From contig CM000434.1 of the NCBI GenBank assembly GCA_000165345.1, forward strand, positions 1,152,001 through 1,216,000: 64,000 bases of DNA, written 5' to 3'. The position numbers and the translations under genes are program-made. A model generated the notes under the pieces. It made no database searches. It was given only the letters and a program-made list of their open reading frames with translations, and was not told the origin of the DNA. Positions 3,119 to 42,457 of this stretch are shown in pieces (position 1 is the first letter of the stretch; each line of letters starts with the position of its first letter).

Positions 3119-3472
3119 AGTCAAAAATAATATAGAAAAGATTGGAGATCAAAAAGTGGAACAAAAGGAAAATTTTGAAAAAAAACAAAACGTTGAATAG
3201 CAAGTATAAAGATTTGGGAAGGAAAAGAAAGGTTGATTAAAAGGAAAGGGAGAAAAGTTTAGAGAATTTGAGCAGGAGTTTTTTTTGTTGTTATTGGGAA
3301 AACAGTTTGTTTTAGCAGAAGTTAAGATTTTGTTACCATAAAGTACTATTTTAAGGATTTAAGAACTTAACAAATATTGCGTTTATTATTGAAAGCTTGA
3401 AATCTTAGCCAAGCTATACAAAATAAGTTGCTTTTTTTTCTTTTTTTCCAGGTTTCTATAAACTTGATAATT

Positions 3473-5131
3473 ATGTCATTAATTTGCTCAATTTCAGGAA
3501 CTACTCCTGAAGATCCTGTGATCTCAAAGACAGGATATATCTTTGAAAAAAGACTCATAGAGGAGTACATAAGATGCAATAATAGCTGTCCAATCACAAA
3601 GAGTGAGCTTTCTTTGGATGATTTGATTCAAGTTAAGTCCAAAAGTAATTTAAAGCCAAGATTGATTAAAAATACAAGTATTCCAGGTATTCTTGACTCC
3701 CTTAGAACAGAATGGGATGCAATGGCAATGGAGATGTTCCAGCTTAGATCTGAGCTTGAACAGACCAAATCACAACTGACTCATAGTCTTTATCAACATG
3801 ATGCTGCTTGTAGAGTGATTGCCAGAATTACTAGAGAAAAAGACCAAGCCATTAGTAGGTTAGCTGAAATCCAGAATAGTATTCTTGAGAAGGATGAAGA
3901 TAATATTACTAGTCTTCAAAGTGTAGGAGGTAAAAGGATTAGAGCAGAAGATAATTTCGTTAATATCCCAGAAGACGTTATAGACCTTTTTACTGAATAT
4001 TCGGATAAAATGCGACCAATTCGAAAAAAACAGTCATTCCCAGACCTTATACCTGCTGAACAAGTCAAAGAATTTTCATTAAAGAGTGAAATAAAACTCA
4101 AAGAGAACTGTAACATAGAGGTTGGAGTAGCTTTCAATGACGAAATTTACGTCTCTGGAATGGAAAATGGCGAGATTCTTGTATCAAGCATAGAATTTGA
4201 TAGAAATGAGATATCTTCTATCCCTATAAGTTATCCACAAAATTGTGAACAAGCCGTTTCTATTTTCGCCATCGAAAAATATTCAGGAAGTCAATACTCA
4301 TCTAAAAATACTAGCCAGCTCCTCTCCTCCTTAAATGTTCTTGCTTGCTTTCAAAACTCAAATAAGATTCATATATTCTCTAGAAACCAAGAAGATGATG
4401 AATCTTTTAACTTATCGCTCATGGATTTTAACTCTTCTTTTGAATCAAACATCATTATCAACTCACTCGAAAAACACCCTTTAGGAATGCATATAATTGC
4501 AAATTCTTCAAATAAAGGCCTATTTTCCATGTTTGATCTGGAATCCAGAAAACAACTTTTCCTACATCAACTTGAACAAAATAATTCATATTCACAACTC
4601 AAACCACATCCTGATGGCCTTATTCTTGGAGGAATTGTACCCAATGGGAATATTGTTGATATATGGGATATTAGAAATCTAGAGAAAATTTCATCCCTTG
4701 AACACCCCACGAAAAATAATAATATTGACCATAACGACCCAAATATTAGCAGAAACTCCAGCCTTTGCTTCTCAAATAATGGATACTATTTGCTTTCTAC
4801 CTCCCTTGACAATAAAATCCACCTTTGGGATCTTAGAAAATCTGCTATTCTTGATTCTCTTGAACTATCCACACTCCCTAACAATTCTAACCTGATTTTA
4901 CAAATTGATGAAAGTGGAAAATATGCCTCCTGCTTTAGCAAAAACCATTTCTCCATTTTCTCACTCTTCAATAAACACAAACTACAACTTATCTCATCCT
5001 TGTCCAATTTCTCTAATAGAAATAATAATAATAATCTCCCAGACAATATCCACCATATTCACTTCAACCAAAATCTTAATTCATTCTCCTCATTATGCCA
5101 CAGTGGAATTATTCGTATGTGGACAAATTAA
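3473..5131 (+). CDS. PRP19: Pre-mRNA splicing factor PRP19 (U-box E3 ligase + coiled coil + WD40)
   Basis: The N-terminal U-box MSLICSISGTTPEDPVISKTGYIFEKRLIEEYI...CPITKSELSLDDLIQV matches the PRP19 N-terminus, followed by a coiled coil and a C-terminal WD-repeat region. The track ORF starts at TTG 3428; the first ATG is 3473. Confidence 0.85.
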   Translation: MSLICSISGTTPEDPVISKTGYIFEKRLIEEYIRCNNSCPITKSELSLDDLIQVKSKSNLKPRLIKNTSIPGILDSLRTEWDAMAMEMFQLRSELEQTKSQLTHSLYQHDAACRVIARITREKDQAISRLAEIQNSILEKDEDNITSLQSVGGKRIRAEDNFVNIPEDVIDLFTEYSDKMRPIRKKQSFPDLIPAEQVKEFSLKSEIKLKENCNIEVGVAFNDEIYVSGMENGEILVSSIEFDRNEISSIPISYPQNCEQAVSIFAIEKYSGSQYSSKNTSQLLSSLNVLACFQNSNKIHIFSRNQEDDESFNLSLMDFNSSFESNIIINSLEKHPLGMHIIANSSNKGLFSMFDLESRKQLFLHQLEQNNSYSQLKPHPDGLILGGIVPNGNIVDIWDIRNLEKISSLEHPTKNNNIDHNDPNISRNSSLCFSNNGYYLLSTSLDNKIHLWDLRKSAILDSLELSTLPNNSNLILQIDESGKYASCFSKNHFSIFSLFNKHKLQLISSLSNFSNRNNNNNLPDNIHHIHFNQNLNSFSSLCHSGIIRMWTN

Positions 5132-13601: not shown

Positions 13602-13937
13602 TTAAGCATCACATCTTATTCTAAATGAGTTAAATGCGTGTTCTTCCACAGTACGACGATTGGAGACTACGCACTTTTCAATTGTGGAACCGGGACTACC
13701 TTCCCTTTCCAAAAAATCAATCCTAAAGACAAGCATTAAATAATACTAGTGTTTGTGTAATTAAACATACATTTTGATAACAGAATCTTCGTCTCCCTCC
13801 AACTCGCCAATAACCGTACCAGAAGGGGTATTTTTGCACCATCCAAAGACGTTAAGTTCATTAGCCTTAAGAAAAGTGTATTTCCTAAAAGAAACACCCT
13901 GGACTTTACCAAAGACTTCGAACTCACACTTTAACAT
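13602..13937 (-). CDS. Acylphosphatase, two exons: 13771..13937 and 13602..13722, with an intron at 13723..13770
   Basis: Exon 1 carries both acylphosphatase signatures: FEVFGKVQGVSFRKYT and GWCKNTPSGTVIGELEG. The track ORF 13761..13973 starts at TTG and stops three codons after a GTATGT donor. Splicing GTATGT...TTTAG (48 nt, phase 2) restores the conserved C-terminus MIDFLEREGSPGSTIEKCVV... (compare human ACYP1 MQEWLETRGSPKSHIDKANF), giving about 95 aa. Confidence 0.7.
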
Positions 13938-13989
13938 TCTTAAAACGTCTAAGCTATGTACAATTGAACACAATCTATTCTTATTATTA

Positions 13990-14009
13990 TTTTTTTTTTT
14001 TTTTTTTTT
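13990..14009. repeat. T20 homopolymer in the acylphosphatase/CCCH divergent spacer
   Basis: Seen directly. Confidence 0.8.
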
Positions 14010-14659
14010 ACTATTAAAGATTATTTATTCACATTGTGCCTTTAATAAATCTGTTTGGCGCCAACAGCCAGCATATTTTCGAATAATCAAAGAGCGATAT
14101 CTTTTGAAAAAAAATTTATTTTCACACCAAAATGGTAAATTGCCTCGTTTAAAAATATACACAAATTAATACGTATTATTCGATATCCAACAATAGACAA
14201 ACACTGATATGTTCCTCAAAATCACAAGAAATAATACGTCATATAAGTTTCCCGCGTCTCTCCAATCTTGGATATGTATAATTAGACTATAATGGACGAT
14301 ACAGGATAACTATGGACCCAGTATAACTGCCTAGGTCGCACTATACGTGTTATTATCTGACATTTTAATGAGACATAACATTAAATCGTCGGTCGAAAAA
14401 TAATCCTGTTGGGTAACCATCAGGTTACAAAAGGTCGATTTAAATTTTTCCGAGGAATTTGAGACGAGGAGTAAGAGTTCACTACTTAACGCTTAAATAT
14501 AACAGCTACAAGTGTAATATTATGTTCTTTGACCAAAGACTTTCTTCAGAGAAACGGAATATATATATTTTCAACAATTGAGCTTCAACAACTGAATATC
14601 TAAGTTTATTGTTTTAATATATTAAATAGTATTGTTAATATTTATAAAGAGTTGAAAAA

Positions 14660-19010: not shown

Positions 19011-19092
19011 GTCGATCTGCCCGAGTGGTTAAGGGGCTTGACTAGAAATCAAGTGCGGTCTCCGCGCACAGGTTCGAATCCTGTGGTCGACG
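19011..19092 (+). tRNA. tRNA-Ser (anticodon AGA), class II with a long variable arm
   Basis: Acceptor stem GTCGATC/GGTCGAC, D-arm CCCGAGTGGTTAAGGG, anticodon stem CTTGA/TCAAG with loop CTAGAAA (anticodon AGA). The variable arm is GTGCGGTCTCCGCGCAC and the T-arm is GGTTCGAATCC. A Pol III T-run (GTTTTTTAGGTTTTT) follows at 19093. Confidence 0.85.
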
Positions 19093-26278: not shown

Positions 26279-26767
26279 TTTGAAAAAATATTATAGAATT
26301 TACTCCTATTTATTTCTTTCAGATTCTATTTAACAATACTCACTCTTTTTACAACTCTGTAAAAAATGAATCTATCTTATATTATTTAGGTACCTTATTG
26401 GTACCCAGATAATCTAGACATCACGTATTATTATGATCTTTTTCTCATATCTACATGAAATACTTTGGATTCATTCTCTTTACACTTTCTTTACACTTTC
26501 TTTTTCCAACATAGACCGGACATTCCGTCTTTTGGTAGTATTTTCATGTGCTTTTCTTTTGTTATTTGCCTATTTATTAATTTTTATAATTATGTGCATC
26601 ATTTAGGCGGGAAAACATGCACAAATTATGCATGCACAATTTTTAGATAATATTAAATATTTATTAAAGTATAATAAAATTATTGAAAGAAAAGATGAAG
26701 ATTGAAAATTGAAGGGATATAAAAGAAAACAACTAGATATAGAGAGACAAGGCGAGTGAGTAAAAAT

Positions 26768-28224
26768 ATGATTTTTAAGATTAAAAGTTTATTAAATTTA
26801 GATAGAAATGGTTTTCTTTGGGTATTAGTTAAGACAAATATAGAAAATGACGATTTGAGTGTTAACTACTGCTTAAATAATTATGCCTACAATTCATCAA
26901 AGGAAGGATTCTTAGGTGAAGGTAGTTACTTTAGGGCATATAGGGGTAGGAAACTTTTTTCTTTTAATAAGGATAGTGTTGGAAGTATCTTAACCACACT
27001 TAAAATAGGGTTATTATCATGTCTTAAATCTCATAAAGTTGCTTTGGTTATGGAAAATAACCAAAAGATAATTTTATCTGTGTATGAGAGGGTGATTTTG
27101 GAATATTTAATAATGAGAAAATTGAATCATTCCAGTATACCAAGAGTTCTTGACTTGATTGAGGTACCAGAATCGAATCAAATAGTGCTAGTTCATGAGT
27201 ATCTACCTTTTCAGTTGATGTATTGGAATAGGTATGGTAAATTTTATAGTGTAATTAATAATTCTAGAAGGATTATGGTTTATAGTGAGAAGATTTCAAT
27301 AATAATATTGTACCAATTACTTGTTTGTGTTGATTATTTACATGAACATAGAATTGTACATAGGGATATTAAGCCAGAAAATATCTTTTTAACAGAAAAA
27401 GTTGATGAATCAGATTTGATTTGCACTTTTGAAGATCTGAATAGTTTGGATGAGGATGAGGAAGATGAGGATGAATTGTTTGAGGAAAAGTGTCTTTGGG
27501 AGGATGCTCCCATATTTGAGTCAACTTCAGGAGCAAAAGCTGAACAAATAAGATTATTAAGAGAAAGAGATGTGGAAGAAGAAGAAGAAAAAACGGATTT
27601 CTTGGGGAGGAGCTCCTTAATGCAGTTATTGGTGCTCAAAGAATATATGGAATACTTCAAAAAAGACTTTCCTTCAACAAATAAGGAGTCTGATACCGCA
27701 CTTAAGTTTATTTCCAAGTTCCAAGTAAAACTTTCCGATTTCAACTCATCTATTATAGTTAATGACTCTGGGTTGATATATGATTCTGGTAAGTTTAATT
27801 ATATTTTAAGGTGATTTATAGGAGGGAGAGGGAGTAAACTTCTAGGAAATATCATCATCATCATAATTACCATTAATTAATTAACTCTTGATTACCATTT
27901 ATAATAGAAGGATCTATGTTATTTACTCCTCCAGAGTGTTTTAAGTTGGAATGTACCAAAGATGGAATAGATGGATTTAAAAGAGATATTTGGTCAATAG
28001 GATGCGTTATGTATTGTATCTTGAATGGAAGCCCTCCATTTTTTGGACAAGATACAAGAGAACTTTTAAGATCCATAAAAGAGAACTCTGAAAACTTAGT
28101 TTTCAACCGAGAAGGAATATCATTGGAAACAAGAATGCTGATTCAAGATATGTTGTGTATAGATCCAATTAATAGAATTTCTGTCAAGAATGCGATTGAA
28201 AGAGTAAGAAAAATGTTGAATTAA
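26768..28224 (+). CDS. Serine/threonine protein kinase, two exons: 26768..27788 and 27908..28224, with an intron at 27789..27907
   Basis: Exon 1 has LGEGSYFRAYRG (Gly loop), HRDIKPENIF (catalytic loop) and KLSDFNSS (DFG-like), plus an acidic insert. Track ORF 2 (27916..28224) has the kinase subdomains VIII to XI: FTPPECF, DIWSIGCVMYCIL, DPINRIS. The GTAAGT donor at 27789 and the AATAG acceptor ending at 27907 join them in frame (phase 1). Total CDS is 1338 nt, giving 445 aa. The track ORF 1 starts at GTG 26756; the first ATG is 26768. Confidence 0.75.
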
Positions 28225-36731: not shown

Positions 36732-37344
36732 ATGCCTAACAGTTTGAGTTCTTCATCTTTTTTCTCGTTAATTTTAGAGCTATTTGATCATTCACGCTCA
36801 ATTTGTAGCTTTCTGCAAAAATTTACCCTTATTTCCTTCTCTTCTACTCTCCACTGTCTTGGATAAAAGACCCGCCCAAGAATTAAGCCTTAAAAACTTG
36901 CCAAGTGTTCCCAATATGTACACATAAAAAATATATATATATTTATTATATTGATTCCAAATAATTCCCAGTTTTTCAATCTTTAGAAGCCAGAGCTGGG
37001 ATACTCTACCAATTTTTTCACAGCTTTCTTTCCCAAAATTGGTCAAATTCAAATTTGGTATTTTAGTTTTTTTTTTACTGTCGGCCGCTTATTTTTCTAT
37101 ACTATTGGTTAAAGGCCTTCCTTGGCTTCTAAGCTTAATTTTTCTAAATACTTCAATATTGAAATTTTCTTTTATCAAGAACCTCCGTAATTCTTACTTT
37201 TGAGGGTAAAGGCTACTTTGAATAACTGCCAATTCCAATTTTTTCAAATTACTCCGTAAAGCCTCTTAATTTGCTTGTATATTATAATTTGTCAATGCAT
37301 GCTATTTCTGGCCCAAATGCATGCACACTAAAATCCGAGCTTAA

Positions 37345-37360
37345 TTCCCGCTTGCATGCA
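37345..37360 (+). promoter_or_regulatory. TTCCCGC + TGCATGCA pair immediately 5' of the DPH7 start codon
   Basis: ttcccgcttgcatgcaATG. Further TGCATGCA copies are at 37296 and 37319. Confidence 0.45.
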
Positions 37361-38565
37361 ATGCAGATTCTAAAATTCGAGCATCCAGCTGACTGTATTT
37401 ATATGAATGGCGTGGATAATCGACACTTTGGAGTTGGTCTTTACTGCCTTGAGGATGCAGAGTCTCAACACAGAATTGGGGGAATCAATATATATGACAT
37501 CCAGTCAGTTCTGGAGATTCATGATGGCCACCCAAATTATTCCTCTAAAACTGCAGAAAATGTAGAGCACAAACCCAAAATGTATATCAATGCAGAATCA
37601 GGAGTCGTTAATTTTGAATGGGACCCTAAAGATGTAAACCTTAACAATCCGGACTTTACCCACATTACTTGTCTCTGTTCAGATAAGAGCCTTAAACTAT
37701 TTAGAATAGACTCAGATTTTTGCAGCTATAAGCTTCTTAATTCTGTTAGGTCTGAAAATATAGACAATAACAACCATATAATTGGACTAGACCTGTCTTG
37801 TATTTATTCTAATGGTACCAGGTAAGCTAATATAGGTTGGAGAAAAAGGGGAAAGAGAAAAAACCTTTTTTTTCATCCTAAATTTCCATCCTAATTTCTA
37901 TATCTCTTGAATAACCTAACTCCTTTGAATCTTTGAATTCTAATTTTAGAAAAACCTGCTATAGCATTTCAGACGGAAGAGTTTTCATTATTAGAAACTC
38001 TGAAATCATTGAAAACGAATTCTATGCTCATCCAAATACTGAAGTATGGACAGTGTCATTTCTTGATCCAGAGGGAAATCTCCTGGCAACAGGAGCTGAC
38101 GATTGCTCTTTATCTTTATGGGATCTCAGAACAAGTTGTATTGATGAGCCAATAATGAAGAACAAGAAATCCCATTCTATGGGTGTAACTTGTATCCAAA
38201 AGTCGAATAGAAATCATCAATTTTGGTCAGGAAGTTACGACGAAACCCTTAGATTCTGGGATTTTAGGATGATAAACTCTCCTATTTATGAGCACAAAAC
38301 TAATGGAGGAATTTGGAGAATTAACCAATTTGAAGATTACCTTGGAATGGCACAATGTTATTATGGTCTTGAATACTTGAAATTAGATCCAAATTTGAAT
38401 GTTGAAAAACAATATATTTCTGTCCCAAACGATTCAGAAAGTCAATTTTCTCACAATTCCATAGTATATGGAATTGACACATTTAGAATGAATAACACAC
38501 TTTTTGGTTTTAGTTGTAGTTTCTACGATAAAACTGCACTTATCTTCCAAATTCTGGAAGAATAA
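37361..38565 (+). CDS. DPH7: Diphthamide biosynthesis protein 7 (DPH7/WDR85, diphthine methylesterase), two exons: 37361..37821 and 37950..38565, with an intron at 37822..37949
   Basis: Exon 2 matches human DPH7: ISDGRVFIIRNSE / SDSTGQLHLLMVNE, WTVSF, GADDCSLSLWDLR, HSMGVTCIQ, SGSYDETLRFWDFRM / GSYDEHILLWDTRNM, GGIWRI / GGVWRI, FGFSCSFYD / LLATCSFYD. The track ORFs 37271..37825 and 37933..38565 both begin at TTG. A GTAAGC donor at 37822 and a TTTTAG acceptor ending at 37949 join them in frame (phase 2). I prefer the start ATG at 37361, which sits right after TTCCCGCTTGCATGCA. The N-terminus MQILKFEHPADCIYM resembles human MMGCFALQTVDTELTADSVEW. Confidence 0.75.
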
Positions 38566-39352: not shown

Positions 39353-39651
39353 TTTTAAGTTTTGGATTAAATAAGTTACATTAATTTTCTAAATTGATTA
39401 TTTCTTTTTCTTTTATTAGTTCCTTGCCTTTTCCTCCCTCCTGACTTATTCTTGATTATATTGTGTCAACAAAGATCTTTATGGAATTATTGATCATACT
39501 AATAAGTACTTCAAAACTAATATATATTTTTTCCATCCTCAATGTTTAAGCTACTTAGAGTCTTTTGTTGTATAGGTATTCTTTTCAATCTCGCTCTAAT
39601 TAATTGAGTAAAAATTTGAATAAATAAATTAATAAACATCTTTAAAAAAAC

Positions 39652-40570
39652 TTACCCGCATGTTGAACAGATTGGAGCTTTAAATCTTGAACAAAATATT
39701 GATAAGCAAGATGAGCATACATATCCTATTTCAATTTTCTGATGATGACAGAAACATACAGCCAAACCTGTCTGCTTTGTTTTATTAATAGAAATAAAAA
39801 TCTCCTCACGTGCCTGAATAGAAGGTAATAAATGAAAAATCAAAAAAGGAGTCAATCCCTGATCCAACCAATGATGATCCTCCTTATTTATTTCAATGTT
39901 ACTCTCTGCCAAAGAGTCTACAATTTGAGAATACTTTAAATTTAAACCATTACATATATCAACTAAATTATTCAATAAAGGAGATGGATTCCTTGTAACA
40001 CTCACAACATCAATCACCACATCCTGATTCAAAATATTACAATTAATTCAATGTTTAATAATATATGAATAAATAACTTACCAATTTTTGTGATGCAAAC
40101 CCACAATTCAGCAAAGATACATACTGAGAAATATATTCATCTTTATTTGAAGCATCTAACAGTATAATACGATCTTTTTCTGACCTATTATATCCAAACT
40201 TCTTTCTTGTACTATTAATCTTACACAAACACTTTGAAATGGTTGGGCTCATCTTCATCTCGCCCAATGAAATTCTTTCTGAAATCTCCTCTAACATCTT
40301 TGGCATTATCTCAAATTGTAACTCCTTTGTCAAGCCAGATATAAAACCATCAAACAACAAATTCTCGCCTTTTGAGTCGCATAGATATATATTCAGCTTC
40401 TTTTTCTGACCAGTACTAAGATTATATAGCCTTGTGAATTGAAATATTGAATTCAGTACGCATTCTCCCGAAACCAATAAGTTACTTTGAGCATTTGATT
40501 GACTTTCTCCAGTATCCTCATATCTAAATAAACTTCTTGAATCCAGAATTATATATAAAGTCCCCTCCAT
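39652..40570 (-). CDS. TFB4: TFIIH subunit p34 (TFB4/GTF2H3), two exons: 40082..40570 and 39652..40023, with an intron at 40024..40081
   Basis: C-terminal exon: [36 protein letters not shown] matches the human p34 zinc finger [34 protein letters not shown]. Track ORF 40055..40570 ends three codons into a GTAAGT donor (40081), and ORF 39652..40032 begins at TTG. A 58-nt GTAAGT...ATCAG intron (phase 0) gives ...FASQKL|DVVIDVV..., parallel to human ...FAAQKQNILIDACVLD. Total 286 aa. Confidence 0.8.
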
Positions 40571-40679: not shown

Positions 40680-41962
40680 TCATGATTTATCACTATAATA
40701 TTCGCTACTATCATCTTCCTTAATATGTTCTAGCTGACTAAACAGTTCACTTGCATTGCTTGGCTTTGGATTATATATTGATCTAGAAGTAAGTTTTTCC
40801 CTTGATTCAATCAAAGGTGACTGTTCATTCTCATCAAGTTCATTATCTTGACTGTATCCTGCATCTCTCAACTCACTGCTAAGACTTTTGTACTTAGAAT
40901 AACTGTTTCTGGGACTTCTACTGATGAGTGAAATTGGCTTCCTTAGTGAGGGCAAATTGATTCCATAATTATAATCTGTAAATGTATGCATTGTTTGTAA
41001 TCTATTACTAACTAATTTATTAATTCCTTGTTCCATTGCATCACTCTTGTTACTAAATCTCTGCATCTCTGTTACATTAATACTTTGAGAATCACTAGTA
41101 ATACCATTATCTTCTGAAGCCATTTGCAGAATTTCGACCATGTACATTCTTAATTGCTCGGATGAAAGACTTGCATAAGTTGGAAGTAGAGTTCCAACTC
41201 CTTGTACAAAATGAGTTCTTACTTGTGTTTCATCAAAACCACTAACTAGTTCCATTATATCTCTTGTTGGCACAATTTTATCATTAAGACTTTGTACAAT
41301 CATCAGACTTTGAAATCTTTCAGGCTCTAATTCCATTCTACTAAACGTAAATCTTCTAAAGTTTATGATAGATGGAGAAAACATTATCACAGGAACTTTG
41401 CTTATCCTTGAGTTTACCTTGCTCACGCTAACTGCTGAAAAATCTGACGTCATAATTATCTCAGGCTTGAAGGCCAATATATTCTTTTCTATTATATCTT
41501 TTGCAACATTTGCACAACGCTTCAATACTATTATCCCAGTTATTCTATACCCTACAATGATTAGAAAAGCCTTTGATTTTTTTTTGTTTTTTTAATCTTA
41601 ATCAAATTGAAAATATTTTAAACTTACCATTAAGATTGGTAACACAATCTTCAATCCAAGATTAAAAGATACCAAGAATTCAACTATTCTGTATTATAAG
41701 AAATATAATTAAATTGTTTTTTTCCTAAATTTATTTAATTTAAAACTTACATTAATACTATAAAAATCAGCAATGATATAGCAACATATGAAGTCTTGGA
41801 CCTTATTATTAAAGTTTGATACCTCAAATCTGGAGACCGAATGTATGAAACTCCAACAATCTCCTCTACTTGCTTCTTTCTATATGACTTATAATTATCA
41901 TAGAATCTGCAAAAAAAAAAAATCATTATTATTATTAGAAAATAAGAAAATATTTCTATCAT
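40680..41962 (-). CDS. Hypothetical two-TM membrane protein, two exons: 41751..41962 and 40680..41544, with a 206-nt intron at 41545..41750
   Basis: Track ORF 41747..41962 (ATG at 41962) ends at a TAA that overlaps a GTAAGT donor (phase 2). The downstream ORF 40680..41525 starts at TTG and has no in-frame ATG before M25; an in-frame TAA sits just upstream of the TTG. An AG at 41546..41545 joins the two in frame and creates a continuous hydrophobic helix across the junction (YVAISLLIFIVL|I|ITGIIVLKR). A first AG at 41553..41552 is out of frame. Predicted 358 aa. Confidence 0.5.
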
Positions 41963-42457
41963 ATATTATTGAATTTAATCAACTTCAAACTCACCCATGA
42001 AGATATAATACTCGAATCCCATTCAAATTATCCATTATTCTCGCTATCTCAGTATATTATTCACACTAATTATCCTAAAAACTTTACTATTTCTTGGCAT
42101 TCCAATTCTTAAACTCGATAAAATCCGAAACTTCAACATAATCCTCTTCTTTTTTATGACTCTATTTTTCCATCAACTACTTTTCACAAGTGCCACAAAT
42201 TTGCAATGCATGCAGCCCCCTTTGCATGTTTCCCTTTTGACTGCTATGCCGTCATTCATGCAATGACATAAGTTTTGCCGCCATACGTGGCAGTGTATGT
42301 AAACCTCCCACATGCACAAAGAATAAACTACATTTGAGAAAATAATAAGAAGAAAATTATTCAATATACTATACTGGGAATCTATGTACTAAATGAGAGT
42401 TGCTAATCAATATAAGATGGATGACTCATCTTTTGTGCAATTCTTATAACTAGAAAC

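Follow-up and report, generated by a model that had tools for sequence, protein, structure and literature searches.

Introduction

The genus Cryptosporidium has lost most of its introns, and it is an accepted view that some of the introns found in intron-poor alveolates are ancient. In C. parvum, approximately 10.8% of the genes have introns, and the 688 introns counted have a mean length of 99 nt and a G+C content of 22% (PMC4637869). In an older set of 213 C. parvum introns, the median length was 61 nt and the mean 82 nt; GTAAGT starts 84% of Cryptosporidium introns, and no clear branch-point consensus is present in C. parvum (PMC2483917). For the IOWA-ATCC annotation, to which the locus tag CPATCC_003077 belongs, the introns are stated in general terms to be 100% supported by RNA-seq, and only three putative alternatively spliced C. 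parvum genes have been reported (PMC8744675).

The locus described here encodes a small acylphosphatase of the common type. The animal acylphosphatases, including human ACYP1 (2vh7 and 2w4c), 1aps and Drosophila AcPDro2 (1urr), share ~40% identity with the Cryptosporidium protein in ungapped alignments over ~90 residues. Both signature motifs are common to the Cryptosporidium protein and the animal enzymes, whereas the short N-terminal extension of the latter is absent from the former. A literature search combining Cryptosporidium and acylphosphatase returned no paper on this gene, and acylphosphatase is not mentioned in the supplement of PMC4637869.

We analyzed a 64-kb stretch of C. parvum DNA, denoted as the window, to whose positions all coordinates refer unless another locus is named. 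As read from its sequence, the minus-strand gene at 13602..13937 is almost certainly the C. parvum acylphosphatase gene, with one canonical GT-AG intron placed exactly at 13770/13723. The intron, which lies in the gene of a housekeeping-type enzyme, is real, ordinary and known, and it is already part of the current public annotation.

Results

Gene structure of the acylphosphatase locus

The gene spans 336 nt, and its spliced CDS of 288 nt encodes 95 aa. Exon 1 (13937..13771, minus strand, 167 nt) begins with the ATG at 13937..13935, assigned from sequence reading, and covers residues 1-55 together with the first two bases (AT) of the Met56 codon. Its minus-strand translation is MLKCEFEVFGKVQGVSFRKYTFLKANELNVFGWCKNTPSGTVIGELEGDEDSVIK, followed by the partial Met codon. 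The spliceosomal intron (13770..13723, minus strand, 48 nt) is in phase 2, has a G+C content of 25% and runs from GTATGT to TTTAG with the sequence GTATGTTTAATTACACAAACACTAGTATTATTTAATGCTTGTCTTTAG, the splice sites being aat/GTATGT at the 5' end and CTTTAG/gat at the 3' end. Exon 2 (13722..13602, minus strand, 121 nt including the stop) supplies the last base (G) of the Met56 codon and residues 57-95, so that its translation reads M, then IDFLEREGSPGSTIEKCVVSNRRTVEEHAFNSFRIRCDA, and then ends at the TAA stop at 13604..13602 (minus strand).

Without splicing, the frame continues as VIKMYV and meets a TAA at 13763..13761, and a second in-frame stop, TAG, lies at 13748..13746. Since 48 is a multiple of 3, the two exons of C. 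parvum share one frame and are separated only by these two stops. The ORF list for the locus has two entries only, one of 70 aa (13761..13973, starting at TTG) and one of 44 aa (13602..13736).

An earlier note on this DNA had proposed a 48-nt GTATGT...TTTAG intron at 13770/13723, and on re-reading every coordinate and motif of that proposal was correct. It had also placed both acylphosphatase signatures in exon 1, where we located VQGVSFRKYT and GWCKNTPSGTVIGELEG, and had described a TAA three codons after GTATGT, which is seen as M-Y-V-TAA in the unspliced frame. The truncated 70-codon ORF that it had read from the ORF track is the listed TTG-start ORF.

Evidence for the splice junction

The alignment of the spliced 95-aa product to Pfam PF00708, which the earlier note had suggested as a check, gave a score of 72.6 bits against a cut-off of 22.5 bits, covering profile positions 1-85 of 85 and protein residues 4-91. 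Exon 1 alone reached 56.4 bits over profile positions 1-54, and the exon 2 ORF alone had no match in Pfam; the full-length match was obtained only after splicing. In a phmmer search against the PDB sequences, the product aligned without gaps through the junction to 1aps, 6cbu, 2acy and 2w4c, with E values of 3e-20 to 6e-18. Residues 4-92 of the query aligned with residues 9-97 of horse muscle acylphosphatase 1aps (E = 3.3e-20), and residues 2-91 with residues 8-97 of human ACYP1 2w4c. The alignment of the C-terminal half with human ACYP1 (MQEWLETRGSPKSHIDKANF), previously put forward, was reproduced with 6cbu_A and 2w4c_A.

The position of the junction was scored against a profile built from 16 homologues, with Cryptosporidium left out. 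Every segment of 20-150 nt whose first base falls between codons 20 and 87 was excised in turn, irrespective of its terminal dinucleotides, yielding 8,154 distinct products, among which the excision of 13770..13723 ranked first with 130.3 bits, compared with 89.2 bits for the unspliced frame. No other canonical GT-AG junction was found among the top-scoring products, and the next canonical GT-AG candidate was a 21-nt segment scoring 118.6 bits. The junction at 13770/13723 is far beyond chance. Removal of the intron restores both the open frame and the homology across the junction, the GT-AG ends are present, and the donor GTATGT, extended enough to pair with U1, has one mismatch to GTAAGT. Rfam and ARAGORN, run on the 64-kb window, detected no structured RNA in or near the intron.

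In comparison with other Cryptosporidium introns, the acylphosphatase intron is typical in being short and AT-rich, with GT..AG ends and a T-rich 3' end. It differs from them in its minority donor GTATGT and in its length, 48 nt being below both the median of 61 nt and the means of 82-99 nt. A candidate branch point is the motif TTAAT at 13735..13739 (minus strand), whose A at 13736, 13 nt before the intron ends, would be the branch nucleotide; AT-rich DNA often contains such motifs. In six of the eight loci compared below, namely C. parvum, C. meleagridis, C. ubiquitum, C. muris and two unannotated contigs (L007 and L009), a YTRAY motif is found at a distance of 11-13 nt from the 3' end. It was absent from the C. 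felis intron, and in the third contig (L008) it was found 23 nt from the 3' end.

Conservation of the intron in orthologous loci

The acylphosphatase intron was compared among eight Cryptosporidium-like loci. It is 48 nt long with the donor GTATGT in both C. parvum (the window) and C. meleagridis, 49 nt with GTAGGT in C. ubiquitum, 49 nt with GTAAGG in C. felis, and 64 nt with GTAAGT in C. muris. The remaining three loci lie on unannotated contigs that were found through 56-59-aa exon-1 fragments in the protein search: L007 (Logan SRR31861040; 44% G+C) has a 47-nt intron with GTAGGT, L008 (Logan SRR31860995; 24% G+C) a 61-nt intron with GTAAGA, and L009 (ENA ERZ11466776; 33% G+C) a 137-nt intron with GTAAGT. 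These are contigs from sequencing-run and metagenome assemblies, and their likely sources are Cryptosporidium-like species that have not been described or sequenced. L007 also retains the neighbouring CRT-like transporter gene.

In C. parvum as in the four named orthologues, the deposited protein was reproduced only by a GT..AG excision after CDS nucleotide 167. In the case of L007, L008 and L009, the best GT..AG excision fell at the homologous Met codon and yielded products of 93-96 aa scoring 124-135 bits. As such, all eight introns are located at alignment column 76 in phase 2. Intron length is not a multiple of 3 in five of the seven loci other than that of C. parvum, and exon 2 is out of frame there unless the intron is spliced; because the lengths are mostly not multiples of 3, splicing is obligatory in the orthologues. 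For C. parvum and C. meleagridis, in which the length is a multiple of 3, the argument from the frame rests on the two stops alone. The intron diverges faster than the exons: in the alignment with C. ubiquitum, matches were counted in 35 of 51 columns of the intron, compared with 142 of 167 in exon 1 and 88 of 121 in exon 2.

Predicted fold of the spliced product

Arg23 and Asn41 of muscle acylphosphatase are the phosphate-binding and catalytic residues, respectively. In the ungapped alignment with 1aps (offset +5), they correspond to Arg18 and Asn36 of the Cryptosporidium protein. The phosphate-binding loop V8-F-G-K-V-Q-G-V-S-F-R18 fits the pattern V-x-G-x-V-Q-G-V-x-F-R, and the second motif, G32-W-C-K-N36-TPS-G40-T-V42, fits G-[FYW]-x-x-N-x3-G-x-V. 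Among 22 homologues, Q13, V15, G32, W33 and N36 are invariant and R18 is conserved in at least 90%. The enzymatic activity of the 95-aa product, hydrolysis of acyl phosphates (EC 3.6.1.7), is putative.

The AlphaFold model, calculated with a 22-sequence alignment, had a mean pLDDT of 95.3 and consisted of strands at residues 2-11, 31-36, 42-48, 69-80 and 89-91 and helices at residues 17-28 and 50-62. The predicted structure superimposed on human common-type acylphosphatase 2vh7 with a TM score of 0.95 and an rmsd of 0.4 Å over 91 columns, and nearly all of the next ~40 structure matches were acylphosphatases or HypF acylphosphatase-like domains. The 95-aa product is thus predicted to be a complete acylphosphatase domain with the ferredoxin-like β-α-β-β-α-β-β fold. 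The junction at Met56 falls in the middle of helix α2 in the predicted fold, and exon 2 contributes the C-terminal half of α2 together with strands β4 and β5.

From these data, the following course of expression may be proposed. The spliceosome would remove the 48-nt intron, taken to be of U2 type, after the second base of the Met56 codon, and would join the segment ending in VIKM to that beginning with IDFLERE; for splicing in the RNA itself we rely on inference and the literature. The spliced product would keep both the phosphate-binding loop (VQGVSFR, with Arg18) and the catalytic Asn36. If the message stayed unspliced, its translation would reach the TAA stop three codons into the intron, at a point inside helix α2, and the 58-aa product, having neither β4 nor β5, should not fold; judged from the model, it could not form the acylphosphatase fold.

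Alternative interpretations of the locus

The two in-frame stops break an otherwise continuous frame, and prokaryote-style gene callers report the gene only as fragments, as might be seen if it were a decaying pseudogene, or if only the truncated 58-aa exon-1 product were made and the downstream homology were a relic that is never spliced in. Yet the protein encoded by exon 2 is conserved in eight taxa, and for C. parvum, C. hominis, C. meleagridis and C. tyzzeri the gene is currently annotated as spliced, with a product of 95 aa. The intervening segment keeps its GT..AG ends and its exact position as its length shifts by non-multiples of 3, which is expected of an intron and not of a relic, and we give the relic reading next to no credence. 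It is just as improbable that the stops are bypassed in another way, by a different junction or by translational readthrough. Excision of the 21-nt GT..AG segment at 13766..13746 would remove both stops and leave an open 104-aa product, but this product scores 11.7 bits below that of the 48-nt junction and would carry 9 extra residues in helix α2. Moreover, an intron of 21 nt would be far below the reported length distribution in C. parvum (median 61 nt, PMC2483917), and the deposited products of the orthologues need an excision that starts from nucleotide 168. Readthrough is impossible in the five orthologous loci in which exon 2 lies in another frame. Taken together, the conserved position, the drifting length that is mostly not a multiple of 3 and the faster divergence of the intron exclude a pseudogene, readthrough and a sequencing error as explanations; the comparison with the orthologous loci also leads us to reject the 21-nt mini-intron.

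While the 48-nt intron at 13770/13723 would still be real, a meaningful share of the transcripts could retain it, giving a premature stop and a truncated 58-aa product, and this retention would be a means of expression control and not noise. In favour of this are the donor, GTATGT instead of the predominant GTAAGT, the small length of the intron, and UniRef F0X5G7, a 58-aa unspliced model, although this entry is a prediction and not protein evidence. On the other hand, the identifiers of the three alternatively spliced genes reported in PMC8744675 differ from the locus tag of this gene, and the truncated product would end inside helix α2, without β4 and β5. The donors of the orthologues vary freely (GTAGGT, GTAAGG, GTAAGT and GTAAGA), suggesting that there is no conserved design of a weak site. 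We consider regulated retention of this kind very unlikely.

Age of the intron

The acylphosphatase proteins of the sawfly Orussus abietinus (P0023, gene locus L010) and the acorn worm Ptychodera flava (P0015, gene locus L011) were mapped onto their genes. In both animals, a phase-2 intron lies inside the Met codon that aligns with Met56 of Cryptosporidium (column 76). Counted from a gene start at position 501 of each locus, the sawfly intron occupies L010 1069..1296, with the boundaries aat/GTAAGT...CACAG/g, and the acorn-worm intron L011 1250..2287, with the boundaries cat/GTTAGT...ATCAG/g. The animal genes differ from those of Cryptosporidium in having further introns: one at column 34 in phase 1, in the VQG codon, is present in both the sawfly and the acorn worm, and another at column 40 in phase 0, before Tyr40, is found in the acorn-worm gene only. 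The chance of an exact position match is ~1%, as estimated from ~95 x 3 positions and three animal positions and ignoring any preference in the site of intron insertion.

All eight Cryptosporidium-like lineages examined keep the intron in the conserved Met56 codon. Based on the shared position, the Met56 intron is probably an ancestral one that persisted while the Cryptosporidium lineage was losing introns, which agrees with the general literature. That it is ancestral and also owes its survival to a function (for example, intron-dependent expression or regulated retention) rather than to chance appears unlikely. The position common to the Cryptosporidium and animal genes adds a small data point for ancient introns in intron-poor alveolates.

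Public annotation and the start codon

Over its full length, the 95-aa product is 100% identical to a C. parvum protein named putative acylphosphatase, deposited as QOY41378.1 (CPATCC_003077), WKS78607.1, KAL5368371.1 and WRK33098.1. In the chromosome record CP029785.1 of C. parvum, NCBI annotates the gene with a length of 336 nt and a 95-aa product, and these 336 nt of DNA are identical to the window. The neighbours are also as in the window, with a 587-aa gene on one side and, on the other, first a CRT-like transporter and then a papain-family protease. Spliced models of 95 aa have also been deposited for C. hominis, C. meleagridis and C. tyzzeri.

Two older C. parvum models, CAD98307.1 (113 aa) and EAZ51548.1/XP_001388354.1 (123 aa, labelled 'partial'), already contain the VIKM/IDFLE junction and differ from the current 95-aa models at the 5' end only. 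EAZ51548.1 reads through a poly(A) tract, and CAD98307.1 adds an exon encoding MSDNNT, which was taken from an ORF at 14331..14420 (minus strand). The poly(A) run of ~21 nt is located at ~13990..14010 (minus strand), just upstream of the acylphosphatase ATG. Upstream of this ATG, the frame remains open over 29 codons solely owing to the poly(A) tract that it crosses, which explains both the 123-aa 'partial' model and the 70-aa TTG ORF; the run is probably behind the older N-terminally extended models EAZ51548.1 and CAD98307.1. Six of the eight orthologous loci carry a stop codon in frame, 2-15 codons ahead of the conserved ATG. These upstream stops support the 95-aa model starting from 13937, and both N-terminal extensions, the 123-aa partial form and the 113-aa MSDNNT form, were rejected on the same ground.

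Prokaryote-style gene calling yields fragments of 70 aa and 44 aa from the acylphosphatase gene, and unspliced fragments are present in public collections, namely UniRef F0X5G7 (58 aa, ending in MYV) and entries in Logan and ENA. The result matters little beyond annotation quality, in that the current spliced model is supported and the two N-terminally extended models are not. It also demonstrates that a short intron can be located to the base by reading the bare sequence, as in the earlier note, in a genome in which ORF calling of the prokaryotic type breaks this gene up.

Other intron-containing genes and features in the window

The earlier note had regarded introns as rare in this genome, which is roughly true of the genome as a whole, at ~10.8% of the genes (PMC4637869), but the acylphosphatase intron is no exception locally, as at least three other genes in the window have annotated introns. 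The WD40-repeat gene at 37403..38565 (plus strand) appears as two ORFs (37271..37825 and 37933..38565), whereas NCBI annotates a 1,163-nt gene with one 344-aa product; if there is a single GT..AG intron, only the 128-nt segment 37822..37949, running from GTAAGC to TTTAG, gives this product. The gene for the TFIIH subunit Tfb4 at 39551..40570 (minus strand) is annotated with 299 aa over 1,020 nt, and its only two-intron GT..AG solution consists of 40081..40024 (58 nt) and 39655..39594 (62 nt), both with the donor GTAAGT. In the case of the 373-aa annotated gene at 40680..42035 (minus strand), for which no Pfam match was found, the span of 1,356 nt implies 234 nt of introns. One- and two-intron GT..AG models did not reproduce an open frame of that length, so this gene either contains at least three introns or is built in an unusual way.

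An ORF at 3428..5131 (plus strand) encodes a spliceosome factor of the Prp19 type, in which U-box, Prp19 and WD40 domains are present. As listed, this ORF starts at TTG, so its true ATG lies inside the ORF or in an upstream exon. A 352-aa ORF with a GTG start at 26756..27814 (plus strand) matched the protein kinase profile at positions 28-134 of 263 only, and it may be an incomplete gene model with another exon or may contain a divergent kinase domain. The sole RNA gene identified by ARAGORN and Rfam in the 64-kb window is a tRNA-Ser with the anticodon AGA at 19011..19092 (plus strand).
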